UHGV virus genome: UHGV-1739818
Length of the DNA stretch: 14,972 bases
Direction: 5' to 3' (one strand)
From: a virus
This document shows, piece after piece, positions 2,290-11,860 of this stretch. How positions within the stretch are numbered: position 1 is the first letter of the stretch; each line of letters begins with the position of its first letter. Made by a program: the position numbers and the translations under genes. Under the pieces are notes generated by a model. That model was given only the letters and a program-made list of their open reading frames with translations, had not been told where the DNA came from and ran no database searches.

Positions 2290-3177
2290 ATGAATCTGTG
2301 GCAAATGCTTTTGGCCCGTCGTGGTCTGATGGATGTCGCTGAAGCGCATGAGCGTGGAGGCGCTGGCGGTGTAGCTGCTGATAATGAGCAGAGTACACAA
2401 GATCCTGACAAACAGGGTGAACAAAAAGAGCAGCCGAAGGGCGATGACGAATACGCTGGCATGACTCAGGAAGAGTTACTGGCCGAACTTCGTAAAACCA
2501 AGAAAGCTGGTGCTGAACTGCTGAAGGAGAACATGAAGCGCAAAGAGAAAGAGCGCACATTGGCCGATCAGCTTGCTCAGTACGGTGATATCGATCCGGC
2601 TCGTGCTCGCCAGCTTTTAGAAGCTGAACAGGCCGCAGAAAACGCACGTCGTGAGGCGGAGCAAGCTGAACTGGAGCGTCGTGGTGAGTTCGATGCTGTT
2701 AAAAAACAGATGATCGAAGCACACCAGGCAGAGCTGGCACAGCGTGACGAACGTTATGCAGCACTGGAAAGTGAAAACGCATCACTGAAATCTCAATTAG
2801 TCGAGATGACCGTGGGCGCTTCGTTCAGTAACTCTCTCTTCCTACGTGACAAAGTTCTGATGACCCCGGCAAAAGCCCGCGTGATCTACGGTTCTCATTT
2901 TGAAGTGGGTGAAGACGGTAGCGTAGTGGGTTATGACAAACCGGCAGGTCACAAAGAACGAGCTGTTCTGGTTGACGGTGAAGGTAAGCCGTTGCCGTTT
3001 GAATCCGCGATTGAACGCATTGTGCGGGCAGATCCGGAAGCTGACGCATTGATGCGTAGCGAAGCCAAGCAGGGTGTAGGCTCACATTCCAAATCGACCT
3101 ACACAATATCCCAACCGAAGAACAAGTCGACTATGGATAAGTTGGCCTCCGGTCTGGGGAAAATTGGACTTAAGTAA
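2290..3177 (+). CDS. Head scaffolding protein (putative)
   Basis: 295-aa ORF between portal and major capsid genes; highly charged, Ala/Glu/Arg/Gln-rich central segment predicted to be coiled coil (…AEQAAENARREAEQAELERRGEF…); SD AAAAGGA 6 nt upstream of the ATG. No protease motifs seen. Confidence 0.55.
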   Translation: MNLWQMLLARRGLMDVAEAHERGGAGGVAADNEQSTQDPDKQGEQKEQPKGDDEYAGMTQEELLAELRKTKKAGAELLKENMKRKEKERTLADQLAQYGDIDPARARQLLEAEQAAENARREAEQAELERRGEFDAVKKQMIEAHQAELAQRDERYAALESENASLKSQLVEMTVGASFSNSLFLRDKVLMTPAKARVIYGSHFEVGEDGSVVGYDKPAGHKERAVLVDGEGKPLPFESAIERIVRADPEADALMRSEAKQGVGSHSKSTYTISQPKNKSTMDKLASGLGKIGLK

Positions 3178-3202
3178 CATCTAAATCAAAGGGAATTGAT
3201 AG

Positions 3203-4078
3203 ATGCCATTACTGCGTGAAGAAGCTGAAAAGCTGTCTAACAACGAACTTGAACAGGGTGTGATCGAAACTATCATCGATCGCGATGACCTGTTTGCCAT
3301 CCTGCCTTTTATGAAAATTAATTCAAAGGCATATCTGTACAACCGTGAAAAAACGCTGAGTGAAGCTACCTTCATCGACGTTAACGACACCATCCCTGAA
3401 GGTGCAGCAACCTTCGAAGAATGCGTTGCGAAACTGCGTATTCTGGCTGGTGACGTAGACGTTGATAAATTCCTGGCGACCACTATGGCCGACACCAACA
3501 ACCAGTTGGCTATTCAGGTTCGTCAGAAAGTTAAAGGTCTGGCTCGTGCGTTCCGTCGCAACCTGATTTTGGGTGACTCCAGCTCCAACAACAAGGCGTT
3601 TGACGGCATTCCACGCCTGATGCACGCAGATCAGAAGATCGATATCGCCGGTGCATCTATGACTTTCTCTATGTTCGACGAACTGGTCGATGCGGTGAAA
3701 GATCTTGGTGCTGACTGCATCATGATGCGTTCAGAGCACCTGCGTGCTTACCGTGCGCTGCTGCGTACAGTAAACGTAGGTCCGTCTGAAATCATGATGG
3801 AGAACTTCGGTCGTCCGATGCTGTGTCATAACGGCGTTCCGTTCATCATCAACGACTTCATCCCGACCGATGCTGGCAAAGCAAGCATCTACTGCCTGCA
3901 TCTGTCAGAAGAGAACGGCGTTACTGGTCTGTATGGCGGCGACAACGCAGGTATCGTTGTTGAAAACATTGGTACTGTACAGAACAAAGACGCAGTACGT
4001 ACCCGTGTGAAGTGGTACTGCTCTCTGGCGAATAAGCACGATAAGGCTATCGCTGCACTGACCAATGTAAAAATTTAA
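3203..4078 (+). CDS. Major capsid protein (putative HK97-fold, no delta domain)
   Basis: 291-aa ORF after the scaffold gene with SD AAAGGGAA; strongly biased codon usage suggesting high expression; followed by an intrinsic terminator. Length fits a capsid protein that relies on a separate scaffold. Confidence 0.7.
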   Translation: MPLLREEAEKLSNNELEQGVIETIIDRDDLFAILPFMKINSKAYLYNREKTLSEATFIDVNDTIPEGAATFEECVAKLRILAGDVDVDKFLATTMADTNNQLAIQVRQKVKGLARAFRRNLILGDSSSNNKAFDGIPRLMHADQKIDIAGASMTFSMFDELVDAVKDLGADCIMMRSEHLRAYRALLRTVNVGPSEIMMENFGRPMLCHNGVPFIINDFIPTDAGKASIYCLHLSEENGVTGLYGGDNAGIVVENIGTVQNKDAVRTRVKWYCSLANKHDKAIAALTNVKI

Positions 4079-4087
4079 TCAGTGTGG

Positions 4088-4105
4088 TAGATAGGTAGTT
4101 ATCTA
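4088..4105. repeat. Inverted repeat TAGATA-N6-TATCTA between capsid stop and terminator
   Basis: tagata (4088-4093) is the reverse complement of tatcta (4100-4105). A related TTATCTA element occurs at 676-682 in the terminase-portal junction. Confidence 0.35.
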
Positions 4106-4114
4106 TGTTAAAGG

Positions 4115-4138
4115 GTGGGCTATACGCCCACTTTTTTT
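4115..4138 (+). terminator. Rho-independent terminator downstream of the major capsid gene
   Basis: GTGGGC (4115-4120), loop TATAC, GCCCAC (4126-4131), followed by T7 (4132-4138). Confidence 0.7.
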
Positions 4139-4151
4139 GGAGGAGCGAGAA

Positions 4152-5072
4152 ATGCCAGAACAAAAGATGAAGATTACGGAAGAGACATTTTCGGATTTTA
4201 CGGGGCATATGTGCCGTGCCGGATTTACCAATTCTATCTCCGATGAACCTTTAACCGAGCGGCAACAAAGTCAGCTATCTGCTTGTTTGCAGGCGGTTCC
4301 CCTCTCCCAATCCGTAAACATAACCCCGGCTTCACCGTCAGTTTTGGTTGGGAAAACTGTTCAACTTAGTGCAGGTATTAGTATGGGTAAGAGTGCCAGT
4401 TCATTCACCTGGAAGTCAGCCAATGACCAAATTGCAACCGTTAACGGCACTGGATTAGTAACTGGCGTAGCACCAGGCAAAGTAAAAATTACTGCAACTG
4501 ATCAGGAAACCCAGCTTTCCGCTTCAGTGGAAGTCACCGTAAATCCGGTAGCCGTTCAATCCGTAACGGTAACGCCAGAATCAACGTCTGTTGAGAAAGG
4601 GAAATCAGTCAGTCTGAAAGCGAATGTTCAGCCGTCAAATGCGACGAATAAGGCTGTTGCCTGGTCTTCCAAAAATGAAGATAAGGCAACGGTAGACCAG
4701 AGCGGGAACGTTACTGGTGTAGAAGTTGGCACTGCGACGATTGAGATCGTTTCCCAAGATGGCAGCAAAAAGGGAACTGCAACGGTGGAAGTAACTGCGC
4801 CTGTTGTGGCTGTTACCGGCGTCGAAATCGACCCAAATAGCACAACCGTTGAGGCAAACAAAACTGTTCAGCTGACCGCAAATGTCGAGCCGGCAGGAGC
4901 AACAAATAAAACCGTTACTTGGGAATCCAAAAATACCGAATTTGCAACGGTGGATAGCGAAACCGGTGTTGTAACTGGCGTTGCGGCTGGTACTGCCACA
5001 ATCGAGGTTACTACCCAAGATGGTAGCCACAAAGCGACAGCGACCGTAGAAGTCACTGCTGCACAGGAATAA
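4152..5072 (+). CDS. Protein with at least three tandem Big_2 (bacterial Ig-like) domains; candidate capsid decoration or virion surface protein
   Basis: ATG at 4152 with GGAGGAG 7 nt upstream (the track start at 4137 is a TTG lying in the terminator T-tract). Repeated segments of type …TATVDQSGNVTGVEVGTATIEIVSQDGSKKGTATVEVTA… are characteristic of Big_2 domains. Confidence 0.7.
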   Translation: MPEQKMKITEETFSDFTGHMCRAGFTNSISDEPLTERQQSQLSACLQAVPLSQSVNITPASPSVLVGKTVQLSAGISMGKSASSFTWKSANDQIATVNGTGLVTGVAPGKVKITATDQETQLSASVEVTVNPVAVQSVTVTPESTSVEKGKSVSLKANVQPSNATNKAVAWSSKNEDKATVDQSGNVTGVEVGTATIEIVSQDGSKKGTATVEVTAPVVAVTGVEIDPNSTTVEANKTVQLTANVEPAGATNKTVTWESKNTEFATVDSETGVVTGVAAGTATIEVTTQDGSHKATATVEVTAAQE

Positions 5073-5080
5073 TCAATATT

Positions 5081-5098
5081 GGGCGGCGAAAGCCGCCC
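5081..5098 (+). other. Stable GNRA-tetraloop hairpin without a U-tract
   Basis: GGGCGGC-GAAA-GCCGCCC, a perfect 7-bp GC stem, 9 nt after the Big_2 gene stop. Followed by ATGTAGAG rather than a T-run, so not a canonical terminator. Confidence 0.4.
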
Positions 5099-5116
5099 AT
5101 GTAGAGAGAATGCGTT

Positions 5117-5551
5117 ATGAAACCAGCAAAAATTGTTTTATTAGAACCGCAATTTTCCGGTTATTCGGGAATGTTGTGCGGCGTTCAGTTCGAGAACGGG
5201 GTGTCCGTAGCGGAGTTGCCTTTTATCGATCAGCAAAGGATTTGTGCCTCAATGCGAGCATCAACAGTCGAGGGCAAAAATGTTTCTCCGTCTGCCGCAT
5301 ACAGTGATCGTGGCGAGTTGACCGCAGACCTGATTACCGAGCCAGCAGCACCTGACATTGTGCCAATGAAACGTGGGACACCAGATGAACCGGCCAAACA
5401 GATCCAGACTTTCACACGAGAAGAGTTGGAGTCAATTGCAGACAATGAAGGCATTGCCGGTCTACGTGTGATTGGTAATCAGGTTGGTGTCAAAGCGAAA
5501 GGAATTGTCGAGATGATTGAAGGCATCCTGAAAGCACAAGGCGGTGAGTAA
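5117..5551 (+). CDS. Hypothetical protein (144 aa)
   Basis: ORF whose stop overlaps the next start (TAATG at 5549-5553), indicating translational coupling; purine-rich stretch upstream. C-terminal 40 aa loosely resemble a helix-extended-helix motif (low confidence). Confidence 0.5.
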   Translation: MKPAKIVLLEPQFSGYSGMLCGVQFENGVSVAELPFIDQQRICASMRASTVEGKNVSPSAAYSDRGELTADLITEPAAPDIVPMKRGTPDEPAKQIQTFTREELESIADNEGIAGLRVIGNQVGVKAKGIVEMIEGILKAQGGE

Positions 5552-6384
5552 TGGCGCAGATCGACTCGTATCGTAGCGGTGAAGCTGTTTCCCTTTCATT
5601 TGCCTTCAACGTGCTGGATATCGAATCTGCTACCTACACAGTAAAGGACAGCACCGGGGCTATTCTCGTTGATGGCGAGCCGCTAGAAATTACCAGCGGT
5701 CAAATGTCGATTCCGGTTGTCGTGTCGGCTGAATATAACCAGCTCTCTGAGAAAGAACGCGATCTGCGGTACGTCATTGTGAAGGCTGTTGCATCGGGTC
5801 TGACGCATGAAGAGCGGCAAATGTATGTTCTGCTGAATAGTTTTGAACTGTCGATACCAGAACAGTCGTTTGCAACTGTCGCTGATGCTCAAATGCAGGC
5901 GATCGATATGCTGAATGGGGACACTTTGCTGTCGGATGGTGAAGGCTTAATGCGCAAGCGTCTCATTGAGGCTACCAGACGAATTAAAACTTTACCGTTC
6001 TCAATCCGCAAAATTCTACGTATCGACTTTGACCGATACGATCGCCCTCAAAATATGCTGAATGTGTATGACATTCCGTGGGGAGCAGATGGAGCGTACC
6101 GGCATGATTTAGTCGATTGGGAAAAGATGACGCAGGAGAAGTTTGAAGAGTTCCCTGACTACTTCAAAGAAGCGTTGATGCTTGCCGTTGTCAACGAAGC
6201 GTGTGAGATCGCAAATGGCAATGATGTTGCCGCAGCACGAGAGGATGGCATTTTGTCAGAATCCATCGGTGAAACAACCAACATGTACCGTACCGGTAAA
6301 GCTGCAAACGTGCATGTGGCTCGTAGTACCTGGCGCTTGCTGGTCAGTTACATCAACAACCGTATGATTGTTCGCCGTGCGTAA
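5551..6384 (+). CDS. Hypothetical structural protein (277 aa); head-completion or connector candidate by position
   Basis: Translationally coupled to the upstream ORF; lies between the capsid module and the adaptor/neck genes. No family recognised by eye. Confidence 0.55.
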   Translation: MAQIDSYRSGEAVSLSFAFNVLDIESATYTVKDSTGAILVDGEPLEITSGQMSIPVVVSAEYNQLSEKERDLRYVIVKAVASGLTHEERQMYVLLNSFELSIPEQSFATVADAQMQAIDMLNGDTLLSDGEGLMRKRLIEATRRIKTLPFSIRKILRIDFDRYDRPQNMLNVYDIPWGADGAYRHDLVDWEKMTQEKFEEFPDYFKEALMLAVVNEACEIANGNDVAAAREDGILSESIGETTNMYRTGKAANVHVARSTWRLLVSYINNRMIVRRA

Positions 6385-6463
6385 CGCCAGTCGCATTATT
6401 TACTTTTGGTCGAAAGGGTTTTTGGCCAGTAATGAGAGCGACCGACAACAACAGAGAGAGAGC

Positions 6464-6770
6464 ATGAATATTTCGTGGCAAACAGAAATTGCGATCTACC
6501 GCTTTGGCGCAAAGAACGTTTACGGCGAGGCGCAATTACAATTCGTCAGGAAGACGAATGTCGGCGTGGTTAAGTTCGAACAGAGTAATGAGAAATCGTC
6601 AGTTCGTGCTGATAGATGCTGTGTTAGTTGTCCCTTTAGAAGCGGCTGTACAACTTGATGATGTGCTGATCCTTGAAGGTCAAAAATTAAAGGTGTCCAG
6701 TGTTCATCGCCGTTGGGGGCTACGAGGAAGACCTGGGCATCTTGAAGTGGGGGCGAATATATGGGTCTGA
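6464..6770 (+). CDS. Head-tail adaptor (head closure) protein, apparently interrupted by a +1 frame change near 6596-6602
   Basis: Frame 2 from ATG 6464 gives MNISWQTEIAIYRFGAKNVYGEAQLQFVRKTNVGVVKFEQSNEKS and then implausible Cys-rich text to the stop at 6658. Frame 0 is implausible upstream but protein-like from about 6600 (QFVLIDAVLVVPLEAAVQLDDVLILEGQKLKVSSVHRRWGLRGRPGHLEVGANIWV) to the stop at 6770. The conceptual fusion is about 100 aa with features typical of small adaptor proteins. Confidence 0.45.
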
Positions 6771-7234
6771 AATACGATGCGCATCAGTTCAAACGTGCGG
6801 GGAATAGACTCAATAACAGCCAGAAAGCATTTAAGCGATATCTTATTCGGGACATGGAAAAGCTGGCGCGTTTGGTTGAGCGTCTCAGCCGTGCAATGGC
6901 CCCGCTGGAAACCGGATCTCTGGAGACAGCCATCTTTGCCAGGGTGATTAAAGAAGGTTATTCAGGGCTGCGCATTGAGCTTTCTGTGTCTGGAGCAAAA
7001 CCACGTCAGGGGCATCCGGGCGTAGAAGTCGGTGACTATGCTAAGTACATGGAGCTGGGTAAATACCGACTCGGTTATCTTTCTCGAATGAAGAACGTGA
7101 CAAACCCACCAATTGCCGGTGTTAAACCTCGTGTTGGGCCACACTTTCTGGAAAGAGCGGTGGAAATTAGCGAGAAGCAGTTCTCAGAAGCGATTCTTGA
7201 GGCTGCAAGAAAAGCCGGTTTTACGAGAGGTTAA
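6761..7234 (+). CDS. Neck/tail-completion protein, HK97 gp10-like (putative)
   Basis: 157-aa ORF with a G-rich SD; contains a YAKYMELG segment resembling the conserved YA.y.E.G of the HK97 gp10 family; in the lambda gpZ position. Confidence 0.55.
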   Translation: MGLKYDAHQFKRAGNRLNNSQKAFKRYLIRDMEKLARLVERLSRAMAPLETGSLETAIFARVIKEGYSGLRIELSVSGAKPRQGHPGVEVGDYAKYMELGKYRLGYLSRMKNVTNPPIAGVKPRVGPHFLERAVEISEKQFSEAILEAARKAGFTRG

Positions 7235-7235
7235 T

Positions 7236-7619
7236 GTGTTTATCGAAGCGTTTGCAAGTTTGATGCAGAAGGCAAAGATTGGCACGGTCGGGACTGACAT
7301 TTTCTGTCACTACTTGCCTGCCAATGTGAAATCTGGCGTCCTGCTTATTAACCCAAATACCGGTATCAGCATCGATCATGAGCTACAGGGCTTTTACCAC
7401 GAATCATTCACAATAATTGTGCGTGGTTCGTCAATTACTACGACGGTTGAGAAAGCCAATAAAATCATTGAGATGTTTCCAGTAGAGGAAACGGAATCTG
7501 GTGGTGTTTATTTTCGACTGGTACGACCGATGGCGATGCCAATCATTTATCCCAAAAATGATGGAGCATTAATAGAAGCAGGCATTCCTGTTGAATTTGC
7601 TGGCTATTTATTGAATTAA
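7236..7619 (+). CDS. Tail terminator / tail completion protein (putative, lambda gpU position)
   Basis: Start placed at GTG 7236, which overlaps the upstream stop (TAATGTG) and has GAGAGG 5 nt upstream. The track start at 7113 would overlap the previous gene by about 120 nt in another frame. Confidence 0.45.
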   Translation: MFIEAFASLMQKAKIGTVGTDIFCHYLPANVKSGVLLINPNTGISIDHELQGFYHESFTIIVRGSSITTTVEKANKIIEMFPVEETESGGVYFRLVRPMAMPIIYPKNDGALIEAGIPVEFAGYLLN

Positions 7620-7640
7620 GTCAATCGGTAAGTATATACT
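7611..7640 (+). promoter_or_regulatory. Candidate sigma70-like promoter upstream of the major tail gene
   Basis: TTGAAT (7611-7616), then TATATA (7633-7638, spacer 16) or TATACT (7635-7640, spacer 18). The -10 region lies inside the 16-bp palindrome. Confidence 0.3.
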
Positions 7641-7643
7641 TAC
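7628..7643. repeat. Perfect 16-bp palindrome GTAAGTATATACTTAC (TAAGT-N4-ACTTA core)
   Basis: Read directly; 50 nt upstream of the major tail start codon. Candidate operator for a dimeric DNA-binding protein. Confidence 0.6.
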
Positions 7644-7693
7644 TGTTAGCGCAATGAATGCGTAGAATTAACGGAAAAAGGAGTTTTCCATCA

Positions 7694-8440
7694 ATGTCTA
7701 ATACCCATGTAAAAAACATCAAACTTGGTGCCTGTAAGGTGTCGTTTGGTGGTGTGGATTTGGGTTACACCAAAGGTGGTGTTCAGGTTGAAGTAGCCAC
7801 TGAAACGCTGAAAGTCACTGTCGACCAGCACGGCCAGACAATTATGTCAGAGCTGGTGCAGGGTCGTAACATTACCATTACTGCGCCGCTGGCCGAGTCT
7901 GTGTTGAAAAATATGGTCGATCTGATGCCGGGGTCTACTCTGAACGAAGACGACAACGCTGTGACCATCACTTCCGCACAGGGTGTCAACCTGATCGACG
8001 TAGCCAAAGAGCTGGTTCTGACTCCGCAGGACACTACCGACTACGTTCTGACCATTCCGAAAGCTGCGACCGCAGGTAACTTCACCATGACTTACCAGTC
8101 TGATGATGTTCGTGTGTTCTCTGTTCAGTTCAGCGCATACCCTGATGACGAAGGCGTTCTGGGAAGAATGAGCGGCCCTAAACCGGTAAAAACCGTGTCG
8201 ATCAAACCGGAATCTCCAACTGTAAAAGCAGGGGAGACTGTGCAACTGACAGCCGAAATCACTCCAGCTGATGCCGCAGACAAAACCGGTGTTTGGGAAT
8301 CCGAAGACCAGGAAAAGGCCACGGTAGATCAAACGGGTCTGGTACGTGGTGTGGCGCAGGGTTCTACAAATATCTCCTTCACCAGCAATAGCGGTGGTAA
8401 GAAGGCTACTAAGTCAGTAACGATTAACTCCGCAGGTTAA
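7694..8440 (+). CDS. Major tail (tube) protein with C-terminal Big_2 Ig-like domain
   Basis: ATG 7694 with AAGGAG 10 nt upstream (the track start at 7658 lacks an SD). C-terminal about 90 aa is a Big_2-type domain (…VQLTAEITPADAADKTGVWESEDQEKATVDQTGLVRGVAQGSTNISFT…), as in lambda gpV. Located before the G/GT pair. Confidence 0.7.
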   Translation: MSNTHVKNIKLGACKVSFGGVDLGYTKGGVQVEVATETLKVTVDQHGQTIMSELVQGRNITITAPLAESVLKNMVDLMPGSTLNEDDNAVTITSAQGVNLIDVAKELVLTPQDTTDYVLTIPKAATAGNFTMTYQSDDVRVFSVQFSAYPDDEGVLGRMSGPKPVKTVSIKPESPTVKAGETVQLTAEITPADAADKTGVWESEDQEKATVDQTGLVRGVAQGSTNISFTSNSGGKKATKSVTINSAG

Positions 8441-8495: not shown

Positions 8496-8813
8496 ATGAC
8501 CAAATTACTCGATCTCGATTCCATTCTGCCTCCGAAGAAAAGCATCAAATTTGGCGGTCAGGAATATCCCATCGTTGAAATGACGGTAGGTCTGTTCGTT
8601 TCCATCAAGCAGATGGAAGGCAAAGATCTCATGAACATGTCTCCTGTTGAGCAAGTGACAGCTTATGCAGATCTGGTTCGTAAGGTTATCCCTTCAGTAC
8701 CTGACGAAGTTCTTGAAAAACTGACTGTTCCGCAACTCCAGCAGATCTTCACCTTCGCTATGGAAGTGATTGATGAAGAAAACGAAAAAGCGGCTGGCGA
8801 AGGGGCAAAGTAA
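8496..8813 (+). CDS. Tail assembly chaperone (lambda gpG-like)
   Basis: 105-aa acidic-C-terminus ORF immediately upstream of the tape measure gene, with AAGGA 9 nt upstream; its 3' end overlaps a -1 frame ORF. Confidence 0.7.
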   Translation: MTKLLDLDSILPPKKSIKFGGQEYPIVEMTVGLFVSIKQMEGKDLMNMSPVEQVTAYADLVRKVIPSVPDEVLEKLTVPQLQQIFTFAMEVIDEENEKAAGEGAK

Positions 8814-9163
8814 TTTCCCGCGATGAATCCGGGACAAGGACCGTCTCAATAGATCTCGGATTCTATTTCAGTCGTGTAGTTGCTCACTACGCCGTGTCGC
8901 CATTAGAGCTACTGAACGTTCCTCTCACGATGTTCTGGATGCTCAGTCGCAATATAGACCGTCTGCGTGCGGAAGAGGATGTCCGCAACTTACAAGTCGC
9001 TCGTGCGTCCCAGGCGGATGGCGAGGCTGTGAAGGCGTTCATGGAGGGTTTGCAACTCAGGATTGGAAGACCAGTCGTAACAGATAAAGTCTACGATCCA
9101 AGCCAGGATAAGGCAGACCCTGACGCCAAAGAGCAACTGATGCAAATATTTGGCAGAGGATGA
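8777..9163 (+). CDS. T-domain reading frame of a G-T tail assembly chaperone fusion, expressed by -1 programmed frameshift from 8496..8813
   Basis: The -1 frame is open from 8777 (after TGA at 8774-8776) to 9163 and overlaps the last 37 nt of the G-like ORF. There is no SD before its first internal start (GTG 8894). Its stop overlaps the tape measure start region. Confidence 0.6.
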   Translation, partial: RKRKSGWRRGKVISRDESGTRTVSIDLGFYFSRVVAHYAVSPLELLNVPLTMFWMLSRNIDRLRAEEDVRNLQVARASQADGEAVKAFMEGLQLRIGRPVVTDKVYDPSQDKADPDAKEQLMQIFGRG

Positions 9164-9170
9164 CAAGGGA

Positions 9171-10856
9171 ATGTCACAAAACGTAGAGTTTATCCTGTCG
9201 CTGGAAGACAAACAGTTTACAGCGTCAATCGATCGTGCGGGGAAACTGCTTACTCGATTTGGTGAGCAGGTAACAAAGCCTGCTCAAAAAATCCAAACCT
9301 TTGAACGCTCTTTGGGTTCGGTCGCCCGTATCATTGGCGTTCTGGAAAGCAAGCTCGATTCTACGGCAGATAAACTACAGGATGTAGCTGCCGGTTTTGA
9401 GCTTGCTTCAGATGCTACGCGTAAAATGCGTGGCAACATCACCAGCCTCAATTCTGGTCTTAAAGCCCTGATTGAGCGCGTCGATACGACAACTTCTTCA
9501 GTAGATAAACTCACCGCGTCATTACGTAAAGTGCAATCAGAGCTAAATGATTTCTCTGATTGGGCGACCTATGCAAGCAAAAGCGCAAGCCGCTTTGGTA
9601 CGGAGGTCAAAGAAGCCTCTGCGTCCGTGAGTGGCATGAATACGCGCCTTAATACCACGACGAAGCGACTCAGTAATTGGGGTGTCACAACGAGTCAGGC
9701 TGCCGAGGGACTGAAAAAGGTTCGTGAGCAGATGGACGAAGTTATCGGACGTCAGCAACTGATTAGCAAGCCGGTACGCGTTCGTACATCTGGAAGTGGC
9801 GATGGTGGTAGCGGGCGGCGTAGCGGCGCTTCTGGCCATAGCGGTAAAAGTAACGAAGGAGGTATGTTCTCTGGCCTTCGTGGCAACATTTTCCTGCTTG
9901 GCGAGATCGGAGATGCAGCCAGAACGGTTACTGACATCATGTTTGGGTGGCAGAAGCCTATTGTTGAAGCTGCGGCCGAAATGGAACGTATGCGGGTGAT
10001 GCTTCGAGGGTTGAATAAGGAGAAGTCCAACCCGGGCCAGGCTGCCGCTGATGATATGAAGTACATCGTAGACATGGCGCAAAATGCGCCGTTCGCGATG
10101 CAGGCGTTAACAGATTCCTTCGTGAAGTTTCGTTCTGCTGGCTTAGATCCAACCGATGGTTCTCTGAAGGCGCTGGTGGACTCCGTTGCTCGTTTTGGTG
10201 GTGATAGTGAGCTGTTGAAACGTGCGGCTGTGGCCGTTCAGCAGATGTCCGGTAAGGGCGTTGTGTCAATGGAAGAGCTACGTCAGCAATTAGGTGAAGC
10301 CGTTCCTAACGCGATGCAGGCAATGGCAGACGCCGCAGGCATCACTATGGGGGAACTGACTAAAGCCGTTGCCAGCGGTACGGTTGAGGCAAAACAGGCG
10401 TTGTCTCTGATGTTTGTTGGTCTGCGTGCGGAGAATGAGAACGCAGCGAAAGACATGATGCAAACCTACACAGGTGCGCTGGCGCAACTTCAGACGTCAT
10501 TCACGTTATTTGCTGATCGGGTTGGTCAGGCCGGATATCTGGATTCTCTATCGAAGGGGATGAAAGAACTGGCTTCAATCATGAATAGCGCCGAAGGGAT
10601 TTCGTTTGCCAATTCTTTAGGCTCGGGGTTAACGACGGCAATCGATGGGTTGCGTCAGCTTGCTCAATGGTTAGCAAAGAACCAAGAGCTGGTAATTAAT
10701 CTCGGTAAGGTCGTGGCCGCGATGGTTGCGTTCAAACTGATGCGAGCAGGGATCATGGGGGTAGTTGGCGCAGGCAGCCAGATGGTTAGCACCTTTGCCA
10801 CGATGGCGACCGCCATACAGACTCCATTTAACCTCGGCGCTACAGCAGTAAGATGA
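9171..10856 (+). CDS. Tail tape measure protein, N-terminal/major segment
   Basis: ATG 9171 with GAGGA 10 nt upstream (the track start at 9150 is a TTG without SD). Coiled-coil N-terminus, Gly/Ser-rich linker, and a region typical of tape-measure core domains (…NAPFAMQALTDSFVKFRSAGLDPTDG…); hydrophobic C-terminal segment. Confidence 0.8.
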   Translation: MSQNVEFILSLEDKQFTASIDRAGKLLTRFGEQVTKPAQKIQTFERSLGSVARIIGVLESKLDSTADKLQDVAAGFELASDATRKMRGNITSLNSGLKALIERVDTTTSSVDKLTASLRKVQSELNDFSDWATYASKSASRFGTEVKEASASVSGMNTRLNTTTKRLSNWGVTTSQAAEGLKKVREQMDEVIGRQQLISKPVRVRTSGSGDGGSGRRSGASGHSGKSNEGGMFSGLRGNIFLLGEIGDAARTVTDIMFGWQKPIVEAAAEMERMRVMLRGLNKEKSNPGQAAADDMKYIVDMAQNAPFAMQALTDSFVKFRSAGLDPTDGSLKALVDSVARFGGDSELLKRAAVAVQQMSGKGVVSMEELRQQLGEAVPNAMQAMADAAGITMGELTKAVASGTVEAKQALSLMFVGLRAENENAAKDMMQTYTGALAQLQTSFTLFADRVGQAGYLDSLSKGMKELASIMNSAEGISFANSLGSGLTTAIDGLRQLAQWLAKNQELVINLGKVVAAMVAFKLMRAGIMGVVGAGSQMVSTFATMATAIQTPFNLGATAVR

Positions 10857-11860
10857 GCTTCTCCAGCCTATCTCAGTCCATTTTGAAAGATATCACCAAT
10901 ATGGTCGTGAAGTCGCAAATCACGCTGCCTCTAATGAACATGTTGGGGATGGGAACCACCGCAGCTGGTAGTTCACAGAGTGGCAATTTGCTCACTGGAG
11001 TTGCTTCCGCCGTTGCCAATCAAGGGGTACGAATGGGCAACACTGTTAACGGCGACAAGTCGGTGGGAGAAGCCACGAAGGAGACGTCCAGTTCGGTAAC
11101 TGGATTGGGGCAAACAACACAGCAGACCACCAGCGCAATTGGCACTGCAACAAATGCGATTGGTAGCTGGGTATCAGGGCTATTTGATAGCACCGAAGCC
11201 AAAGATGCTGAAACAAAAGCAGTGAAGGACTCCATCTTCTCGATGCAGAACCTCAGCTCTGTTACCGGCGCTCTGTCTGCCGCGTTTGCAATGCTTGGAG
11301 CTAATGCTTCCGGCTCTGGTAATAAGTGGTTGAATTTCGGCGCGACAGTTGCATCTGGTTTGGTTTCAGTATGGGCTGGTGGTGGATTCGATGGATTGAT
11401 GTCCGGTTCTTCTGGCTCAACTTCCGGGTTCAACAATCTGACCAGTTCTGCTGCCGATGGCACGAATGGTATTCCTGCAATTCCGAAGTTTGCAAATGGT
11501 GGCATATTCGGAAAAGACGGCGTGATCCCGCTCCGGGCATACCAGAAAGGCGGTATCGCCAACTCACCTCAATTGGCGTTGTTTGGGGAAGGCGATATGA
11601 ATGAGGCGTATGTTCCATTGCCTGATGGTCGAACAATCCCTGTAACGCTCAGTACCGATGGTATGAGTGGAGGAGGAAATGTTCTTTCTCCGGTATCAAT
11701 TGAGATCAACGTCCATAGTGACGGTAGCACAACTGAATCCGGCGATACAGAAAGCATATGGAACAATGCCGCTCAACGGATGAAAGCAATCGCGCTTGAG
11801 ACTATCGCTCAAGAGAAACGCCCTGGCGGATCACTCAACCCAAACACTCAACGTAACTAA
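10853..11860 (+). CDS. Tape measure protein, C-terminal segment, encoded as a separate ORF in the -1 frame
   Basis: Starts at ATG 10853 overlapping the upstream stop (ATGA). Gly/Ser/Thr-rich with a FANGGIFGKDGVIPL…GEGDMNEAYVPLPDGRTIPV block resembling conserved tape-measure C-terminal motifs. Confidence 0.65.
   Translation: MSFSSLSQSILKDITNMVVKSQITLPLMNMLGMGTTAAGSSQSGNLLTGVASAVANQGVRMGNTVNGDKSVGEATKETSSSVTGLGQTTQQTTSAIGTATNAIGSWVSGLFDSTEAKDAETKAVKDSIFSMQNLSSVTGALSAAFAMLGANASGSGNKWLNFGATVASGLVSVWAGGGFDGLMSGSSGSTSGFNNLTSSAADGTNGIPAIPKFANGGIFGKDGVIPLRAYQKGGIANSPQLALFGEGDMNEAYVPLPDGRTIPVTLSTDGMSGGGNVLSPVSIEINVHSDGSTTESGDTESIWNNAAQRMKAIALETIAQEKRPGGSLNPNTQRN

Follow-up and report, generated by a model that had tools for sequence, protein, structure and literature searches.

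Big_2 Ig-like units on a probable head decoration protein and on the tail tube protein of an SSU5-like phage-plasmid

Two structural proteins of an SSU5-like phage-plasmid, here called gene A and gene B, probably display Big_2 domains on the outside of the particle, and their four units are members of one family that were not copied from one gene to the other. We give this reading a probability of roughly 0.7. The window, the whole stretch of 14,972 nucleotides that was analyzed, comes from an E. coli phage-plasmid of the SSU5/pHCM2 type and makes up its virion (structural) module; the element shares 97.7% identity with phage Cyrano and 81.5% with SSU5. The region is carried by 234 of 5,426 complete E. 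coli genomes and is plasmid-borne in every case. Ig-like annotation of both genes is already present in public records, and Big_2 domains on the virion proteins of tailed phages are well known.

Gene A and gene B lie in the head and tail parts of a structural gene cluster

Gene A follows the major capsid gene and precedes the head-tail adaptor gene, 5' of every neck and tail gene. Gene B is flanked by a tail completion gene on one side and by chaperone and tape-measure genes on the other, as judged from Cyrano and SSU5 annotations and PHROG matches of the neighbors. The tail genes around it are lambda-like, with homologues of M, L and K downstream. The starts of both genes, kept as initially annotated, fit a GGAG-type ribosome-binding site and agree with the gene lengths of 921 nt and 747 nt that are annotated in relatives. 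A hairpin scan found a terminator-like hairpin between the capsid gene and gene A, which is also kept in PhiR41_1 and pJN2-26.

Table 1. Positions of the features discussed, numbered within the window.
Feature	Position	Strand	Remarks
Major capsid gene	3203..4078		Directly 5' of gene A
Terminator-like hairpin	4113..4137	+	GGGTGGGCTATACGCCC followed by a T-run; intergenic between capsid gene and gene A
Accessory cassette	4144..5101	+	Ribosome-binding site, gene A and GC-rich hairpin; one block, there or missing across relatives
Gene A	4152..5072	+	306 aa; N-terminal module, then three Big_2 units; probable head decoration protein
N-terminal module of gene A	4152..4304	+	About 51 aa; putative capsid anchor
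Big_2 unit A1	4305..4550	+	
Big_2 unit A2	4551..4805	+	Contains DKATVDQSG; tandem duplicate partner of A3
Big_2 unit A3	4806..5069	+	Unit retained in the one-unit Klebsiella version
GC-rich hairpin	5080..5099		Directly 3' of gene A; part of the cassette
Next gene (phrog_916)	5117..5551	+	144 aa; first ~51 aa homologous to the N-terminal module of gene A
Gene B	7694..8440	+	248 aa; major tail (tube) protein with C-terminal Big_2 unit
Tube domain of gene B	7694..8173	+	aa 1-160
Big_2 unit B1	8180..8437	+	aa 163-248; C-terminal display domain; contains EKATVDQTG

Gene A carries three Big_2 units and gene B carries one

The initial annotation had placed Big_2 domains on both proteins, and this was borne out. 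The Pfam Big_2 profile (PF02368) matches gene A in three stretches (E = 2.9e-67, 223 bits) and gene B in one (aa 164-242; E = 7.1e-26, 90.4 bits), both above the curated gathering threshold of 22.8 bits, and an HMM built from the units themselves finds exactly three in gene A and one in gene B. The Ig-like beta-sandwich fold of Big_2 was likewise found. The two peptides quoted in the initial annotation are present, DKATVDQSGNVTGVEVGTATIE in unit A2 and EKATVDQTGLVRGVAQGSTNIS in unit B1.

Units A2 and A3 arose by true tandem duplication, each resembling the other more than it does any outside domain. They share 62% identity at 99.8 bits, compared with 82.8 bits for the best match of A2 in a background of about 2,100 Big_2 domains (2,131 in the motif count) that was reused from a full HMMER scan with B1. 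An 89-nt DNA repeat of 71% identity connects the two, and their pairing in the domain tree has a bootstrap value of 49% only. A1 scores 52-55 bits against A2 and A3 and up to 64.7 bits against background domains. The number of Big_2 units in gene A is 0, 1 or 3 across relatives. A3 is 76% identical to the single unit of Klebsiella pJN2-26 and 61% identical to domain 2 of Rosemountvirus BP63 gp30.

Gene A is part of an optional cassette and probably encodes a head decoration protein

Alignment of the window with PhiR41_1 by blastn covers only positions 3001-4143 and 5102-5700. Because the alignment stops at 4143 and resumes at 5102, the cassette listed in Table 1 is missing from this phage as one block. 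Gene A is found in 211 of the 234 E. coli plasmids carrying the region and is missing from the other 23 (ca. 10%). The lack of the gene in an isolated phage and in these plasmids suggests that it is accessory. The best full-length PHROG match of gene A is phrog_215, 'structural protein with Ig domain', in the head and packaging category (1.7e-100). Taken together, gene position and this category point to the capsid as the site of the protein, which is probably a head decoration protein. A literature search for virion proteomics of SSU5-like phages found none.

The N-terminal module of gene A, which putatively serves as the capsid anchor, is conserved in SSU5 as well as in the Klebsiella version with one unit. 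Modeling from one sequence yields two helices at low confidence (pLDDT 35-65). A Pfam search with the module gave no match, and comparison with the known anchors of pb10 and Hoc showed no sequence similarity. The module is related to the N-terminus of the next gene, which is kept in PhiR41_1, a phage without gene A. Profile comparison was needed to show this kinship (hhalign 93%, E = 3.5e-7) since pairwise BLAST is weak (E = 0.019). The next gene itself returned no match in Pfam or in a profile search against PDB sequences. A likeness of its C-terminus to a Rho_N/HeH motif was considered and dropped, there being no such Pfam match even at E <= 10.

Gene B combines a tail tube domain with a C-terminal Big_2 unit

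The N-terminal domain of gene B has the tail-tube (Hcp-like) fold. Sequence matches in the structure database, namely lambda gpV, T5 pb6, a Hoc-like protein and decoration protein gp29, run through the Big_2 part only. With phmmer against PDB sequences, gpV is matched over aa 168-245 only, and no homology of the tube domain to gpV was found. On sequence, the tube domain belongs to a family other than that of gpV while the architecture is alike. Most homologues of the tube protein have no Big_2 unit, including those of Xenorhabdus, Providencia, Pectobacterium and alpha-proteobacteria.

The head-side and tail-side units are not closest relatives

Global alignment of B1 with A1, A2 and A3 gives 40%, 39% and 49% identity (about 50% for B1-A3), with z = 16-21 against shuffled sequences, a similarity far beyond chance. 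Big_2 domains resembling B1 are very abundant, with 19,980 cluster representatives matching it at E <= 1e-10. The HMMER scan with B1 ranks proteins by summed score and its top 150 entries are giant multi-repeat bacterial proteins, so that the nearest single domains cannot be ranked directly from it. A search of a 5.8-billion-protein index with the 86-aa B1 alone returned only nine short orthologue fragments. We therefore give rankings against the individual background domains.

Beyond its orthologues, B1 is best matched by gp227 of Salmonella phage Arash (85.9 bits), the major tail protein of Cronobacter phage ES2 (84.3 bits) and a domain of a giant bacterial protein (79.7 bits), followed by A3 at 77.8 bits. 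A3 ranks ninth of about 2,100 domains; A2 scores 72.8 bits, and both lie within the top ~1%. In the reverse direction, more than 20 unrelated domains score above B1 for A3. The ordering is the same for each of the 26 tail-unit alleles, which are all matched better by ES2, Arash or both than by any unit of gene A. The Klebsiella tail unit matches A2 at 54% identity and 84 bits, marginally above the best background match of A2. Thus, the units of the two genes are not closer to each other than to unrelated Big_2 domains, the outcome that the initial annotation had itself named as refuting its proposal.

A neighbor-joining tree of the domains (85 columns, 500 bootstrap replicates) is star-like, and the clade of tail units itself reaches 56%. 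A group of A2, A3 and the tail units was recovered in 7 of 500 replicates, a group of A3 and the tail units in none, and a group of all four units in none. Where the tail units were monophyletic (267 replicates), the neighboring group included Arash gp227 in 137 cases and any unit of gene A in 59. The tree is to be read as an absence of support for a sister relationship between head-side and tail-side units, not as strong support for another sister. At the DNA level no repeat joins genes A and B, the longest shared repeat being 17 nt at 76%. Over the 84-nt core quoted in the initial annotation, A2 and B1 are 55% identical, and the octapeptide they share is written in different synonymous codons.

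In the loose form A[TS][VI][DSN]..G.[VI].[GA], the shared KATVDQ(S/T)G core is a family consensus, as it occurs in 50% of the 2,131 background domains. The exact form KATVDQ[ST]G is present in A2 and B1 and in 0 of the 2,131. The high ranks of A3 and A2 against B1, combined with the lack of this octapeptide in the background, make it likely that the units of both genes belong to a shared phage-enterobacterial Big_2 subgroup.

The tail unit varies independently of the tube domain

The Big_2 module of the tube protein varies independently of the tube domain. Variants of the protein have identities in the N- and C-terminal domains of 97% and 63% (P0173), 97% and 87% (P0160) and 91% and 29% (P0188), and about 50 of 231 E. 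coli gene B alleles match over nt 1-494 only. In the comparison with Cyrano, the tube domain has a dS of 0.63, the Big_2 unit one of 0.12 and the capsid gene one of 0. Purifying selection acts on all units, with dN/dS of 0.03-0.18 in every comparison with measurable divergence; in some comparisons dS is saturated, which makes the ratio there rough or undefined. Positive selection on the Big_2 units was sought by dN/dS and none was found. The duplication or shuffling proposed initially consequently holds for the tandem copy A2/A3, the variation in unit number and the exchange of the tail module. It does not extend to copying from gene A to gene B, in view of the rankings, bootstrap values of 0-1.4% and the lack of a DNA repeat.

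Alternative explanations and proposed display architecture

A direct copy within the phage lineage, of a gene A unit onto the tube protein or the reverse, followed by divergence, would explain the ninth rank of A3 for B1 and the nearby score of A2, the octapeptide common to A2 and B1, and the slight lead of the Klebsiella tail unit over the background for A2. We consider such a copy very doubtful, as B1 is matched better by Arash, ES2 and a bacterial domain than by A3, and A3 is matched better by over 20 unrelated domains than by B1, in an ordering that all 26 tail-unit variants repeat. The near-zero bootstrap values, the missing DNA similarity between the genes, the different codons of the octapeptide and the sheer number of cluster representatives matching B1 argue in the same direction. 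Gene A could also be a tail, neck or whisker accessory, which would make both Big_2 proteins decorations of the tail region. Several PHROG families matched through its Ig part bear the label 'tail', and one Klebsiella phage record names its homologue 'tail tube protein'. This placement is unlikely: such labels can be traced to the shared Ig domain, the best full-length match is a head and packaging family, the gene precedes the neck and tail genes, and a small N-terminal module joined to Ig domains parallels T5 pb10.

It is somewhat less doubtful that the units are chiefly structural instead of adhesive and stabilize the capsid or the lattice of the tube, a role put forward for the C-domain network of gpV and for pb10. 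Removal of the gpV C-domain, which contacts a neighboring subunit, lowers lambda activity 100-fold (PMC8718954), and pb10 guards T5 against DNA release (PMC5292684); the purifying selection on all units observed here would also fit a structural role. Against it, most tube homologues function without Big_2, and gene A is missing from an isolated phage and from about a tenth of the E. coli relatives. In addition, a tight structural interface would not easily allow the tail unit to be exchanged as freely against the tube domain as is seen here.

Under the favored reading, display on both proteins by members of one family, the ~160-aa tube domain of gene B would polymerize around the tape measure, each subunit projecting one Big_2 unit as in gpV and pb6. 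Gene A, as an optional cassette, would be anchored to the capsid by its N-terminal module with three Big_2 units reaching into solvent, as in pb10 and Hoc. Within its family, the tube protein probably gained the unit in the enterobacterial branch, and the module has been exchanged among alleles since. Gene A probably grew by the A2/A3 tandem duplication from a core of the A3 type, whereas A1 would have a separate or far more ancient origin. The displayed domains may mediate weak adhesion to glycans or surfaces, the standard hypothesis in the literature (PMC8718954, PMC5292684, PMC7602432).

More speculatively, the Big_2 units could be exchangeable surface-recognition cartridges, with the ~51-aa module common to gene A and the next gene acting as a docking adaptor for different capsid display domains and with cartridge variation tuning reversible adsorption to host glycans or mucus. 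We regard this as possible rather than probable; if true, the cartridges would be a secondary determinant of host range or habitat in SSU5-like phage-plasmids. The value of the present analysis is mostly one of annotation, with gene B as tail tube protein and gene A as an optional cassette for Ig display, the head being its probable site, and it corrects the idea of a recent common copy behind the units of both genes. The optional cassette, the unit counts of 0, 1 or 3 and the independently swapped tail unit could guide adsorption and habitat experiments on these widespread enterobacterial phage-plasmids. Gene A would also be a candidate scaffold for display, given its apparent dispensability and tandem domains that would be exposed.

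Comparison with known systems

The Ig domains of T4 Hoc are I-set domains while those of gene A are Big_2. Hoc consists of three Ig domains and an anchor, and gene A similarly combines a small non-Ig module with three Ig-like domains; T5 pb10 has an N-terminal helical anchor and one Ig domain. Like pb10 and Hoc, gene A adjoins the capsid gene and appears dispensable or optional. In contrast to both, its unit number varies among close relatives and it has its anchor-like module in common with the gene that follows.

As related in later papers (PMC8718954, PMC4332376, PMC7602432), the surveys of Fraser et al. (2006, J Mol Biol 359:496; 2007) place Ig-like domains on virion proteins only, describe them as accessory and propose weak carbohydrate binding. 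The surveyed tailed phages carry Big_2 on major tail and head-associated proteins; the phage-plasmid analyzed here probably does the same and adds within-family detail for SSU5-like elements only. The nearest non-orthologous relatives of the units are found in Arash gp227, the major tail protein of ES2 and gp30 of Rosemountvirus BP63. For the tail unit, the Arash and ES2 matches reach 84-86 bits. The carrier proteins and genomes of all three are unrelated to those of this phage. Gene B is nearly equal in layout to lambda gpV, in which the tube domain spans residues 1-156 and Big_2 residues 157-246 (PMC8718954), and T5 pb6 likewise consists of a tube domain and a C-terminal Big_2 domain. Identity between the Big_2 unit of gene B and the C-domain of gpV is only ~31%, and in the family of gene B the unit is a recent gain, confined to its lineage and exchanged between alleles.

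The window comes from an SSU5-like phage-plasmid and carries two Big_2 proteins

All long ORFs of the window lie on the + strand. The gene order is terminase C-terminus, portal, scaffold, major capsid protein, gene A (encoding Big_2 Ig-like units A1, A2 and A3), a 144-aa gene, adaptor, head-closure, neck and tail-completion genes, gene B (the major tail protein, a tube domain followed by Big_2 unit B1), two small genes placed where lambda has its G/T tail chaperones, tape measure and lambda-like M, L and K tail-tip genes. The start codons of genes A and B given in the initial annotation each lie 3' of a GGAG-type ribosome-binding site, and the gene lengths agree with the annotation of relatives. 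Over a 6-kb core, sequence identity is 97.7% with Escherichia phage Cyrano and 81.5% with Salmonella phage SSU5. Of 5,426 complete E. coli genomes, 234 contain this core, in every case on a plasmid of ~100-115 kb. Because of these identities and the plasmid-only occurrence in E. coli, the window can be assigned on sequence grounds to an SSU5/pHCM2-like phage-plasmid.

Two deletions interrupt the region. The head-closure (Hc1) gene is split by a 38-bp deletion with 8-bp microhomology at its flanks; the missing 38 bp are present in both Cyrano and SSU5 and in every one of the 216 E. coli plasmids with this stretch. The tape-measure gene, 4,578 bp long in Cyrano, has an out-of-frame 1,888-bp deletion, and 0 of 228 E. 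coli plasmids are colinear across the junction. Together the deletions suggest that the element is defective, or else that an artefact arose during assembly or construction.

Features of the window
Feature	Position	Strand	Remark
Major capsid gene	3203..4078	+
Terminator-like hairpin	4113-4137		T-run; 5' of gene A
Cassette	4144-5101		ribosome-binding site, gene A, GC hairpin
Gene A	4152..5072	+
N-terminal module	4152-4304	+	gene A
Big_2 unit A1	4305-4550	+	gene A
Big_2 unit A2	4551-4805	+	gene A
Big_2 unit A3	4806-5069	+	gene A
GC hairpin	5080-5099		3' of gene A
144-aa gene	5117..5551
N-terminal module	5117-5269		144-aa gene
Hc1 remnants	6368..6658, 6489..6770		overlapping ORFs
38-bp deletion junction	6608-6615		Hc1
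Gene B	7694..8440	+
Big_2 unit B1	8180-8437	+	gene B
Chaperone-position genes	8496..8813, 8894..9163
Tape-measure ORFs	9150..10856, 10853..11860	+
1,888-bp deletion junction	10850-10851		tape measure

Head-side and tail-side Big_2 units show no specific kinship

Pfam Big_2 covers three stretches of gene A (E = 2.9e-67) and one C-terminal stretch of gene B (E = 7.1e-26), bearing out the tandem and terminal units proposed in the initial annotation; the shared-core peptides quoted there are also found in the sequence. A2 and A3 are 61-62% identical, and A1 is ~41% identical to the rest. B1 is 40, 39 and 49% identical to A1, A2 and A3, respectively, in global alignments (50% to A3 in the domain ranking), and all unit pairs lie well beyond shuffled controls (z = 13-28), confirming the noted similarity between the two proteins.

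The further proposal, that this similarity reflects intragenomic duplication or shuffling, is not supported. We collected ~2,150 Big_2 domains from SSU5-like relatives, unrelated phages (tblastn) and 150 proteins that an exhaustive HMMER scan returned for B1; at E <= 1e-3 the scan matched 50,959 cluster representatives. In the ranking against B1, the five orthologues lead; next are domain 2 of gp227 from Salmonella phage Arash at 85.9 bits, the major tail protein of ES2 at 84.3 and one domain from a giant bacterial protein at 79.7, and A3 follows at 77.8. With A3 as the reference, B1 comes after more than 20 unrelated domains, and for 26 of 26 allelic variants of the tail unit ES2 and/or Arash score above every gene A unit. 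In a tree built by neighbour-joining from 113 domains over 85 columns, with 500 bootstraps, which is star-like at this depth, A1, A2, the A3 type and the B orthologues receive 100, 94, 92 and 56% bootstrap support, A2+A3+B 1.4%, and A3+B and all four units together 0%. In the 267 replicates with a monophyletic B, its neighbour group contains Arash 137 times and an A unit of any kind 59 times. A2 and A3 do fall within the top ~1% of domains ranked against B1, and the exact octapeptide KATVDQxG common to A2 and B1 occurs in 0 of 2,131 background Big_2 domains (a looser motif in 50%). Its synonymous codons differ at four positions, and a search for a DNA-level repeat joining genes A and B found none. 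Given the rankings, the allelic variants, the bootstraps, the codons and the missing repeat, the head and tail units are no closer to each other than to unrelated Big_2 domains; all four are probably members of one phage-enterobacterial Big_2 subgroup.

Arash gp227 (898-1749 in our Arash sequence) carries two Big_2 units and is annotated 'major tail protein', yet lies directly 3' of the major capsid gene. The tail label probably derives from Ig-domain similarity, and the product may be a head decoration protein.

Gene A varies in unit number and lies in an insertion/deletion cassette

The A2-A3 pair scores 99.8 bits, compared with at most 82.8 between A2 and any outside domain, and the two units have an 89-nt DNA repeat at 71% in common; they are a true tandem duplicate. 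Gene A encodes three units in SSU5, Cyrano and the window, and a single A3-type unit (76% identity) in Klebsiella phage pJN2-26. In phage PhiR41_1 there is none, since the entire cassette is cleanly missing from between the post-capsid terminator and the gene that follows, both of which are conserved. Among the E. coli plasmids 211 of 234 carry gene A, nearly all at >=95% identity. The gene, its ribosome-binding site and the trailing GC hairpin behave as a discrete insertion/deletion cassette.

The first ~51 residues of gene A are non-Ig and are kept even where, as in Klebsiella, the gene has a single unit. They are homologous to the first 51 residues of the adjacent 144-aa gene (hhalign 93%, E = 3.5e-7), and gene A also matches that gene's PHROG, phrog_916 (function unknown), at 1.9e-9; no Pfam or PDB match was found for the module. 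The module may serve docking in both proteins, attached to two different C-terminal parts. The best PHROG for gene A, which lies between the capsid and adaptor genes, is 'structural protein with Ig domain' in the head and packaging category (1.7e-100). A single-sequence structure model places two helices at the N-terminus, with low confidence, and three beta-sandwich units after them. We infer that the product is located on the capsid with the N-terminal module as anchor.

Tube and Big_2 parts of gene B are decoupled

Most tube homologues are 160-180 aa long and stop right after the tube domain, lacking Big_2. Among them are proteins from ~110-kb contigs at 74-78% identity, from Xenorhabdus, Providencia, Moellerella and Pectobacterium (~60%) and from alpha-proteobacteria (~50%). 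The Big_2 unit of the tube protein is a lineage-restricted addition. Within the Big_2-bearing group, the database homologues P0160 and P0173 both have 97% tube identity, with 87 and 63% identity, respectively, in Big_2; P0163 and P0188, both at 91% in the tube domain, have 81 and 29% in Big_2. Gene B is mosaic relative to Cyrano (window 7694-8440, Cyrano 9088-9834): its tube part has a dS of 0.63 and its Big_2 part one of 0.12, with a dS of 0 for the capsid gene, and ~50 of 231 E. coli gene B alleles align over nt 1-494 only. This decoupling indicates that alleles exchange modules. Few plasmids have the window's tube allele: only 9 of 231 from E. coli are >=99% identical to it. Several E. coli database entries (P0183-P0185, P0187 and P0189), which may be real alleles or sequence errors, are 93-97% identical tube proteins with a frameshifted end just after the tube domain and no Big_2 unit (P0189, for example, has 162 aa and 80 member sequences).

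The Big_2 units are under purifying selection and resemble known displayed Ig-like domains

Where divergence is measurable, dN/dS is 0.03-0.18 for every Big_2 unit and the tube domain; the units are maintained by purifying selection. Where units diverge more, their dS is also higher or saturated, a pattern in line with recombination and not with positive selection. Displayed Ig-like domains have been hypothesised to bind bacterial-surface or mucus carbohydrates weakly (Fraser et al. 2006/2007 and Barr et al. 2013, as cited in PMC8718954, PMC4332376 and PMC7602432). Such binding would fit the accessory, exchangeable and selectively kept character of the units, with a structural role as the lesser alternative.

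The records of SSU5, Cyrano and RefSeq plasmids already label the products of both genes as Ig-like domain proteins, and the architecture is textbook. The overall finding is ordinary, with the cassette, the 0/1/3 units, tail-unit swapping and the shared N-terminal module as minor within-family additions. T5 pb10, which is dispensable, consists of a helical domain that binds the capsid and an exposed Ig-like domain (PMC5292684); gene A has a parallel layout, an N-terminal module predicted to be helical and then Ig-like units, and is likewise parallel to T4 Hoc (PMC7602432). Gene B has the architecture of lambda gpV (tube 1-156, Big_2 157-246; PMC8718954), but its tube domain is from a different sequence family, and its sequence matches to solved structures run via the Big_2 part alone.
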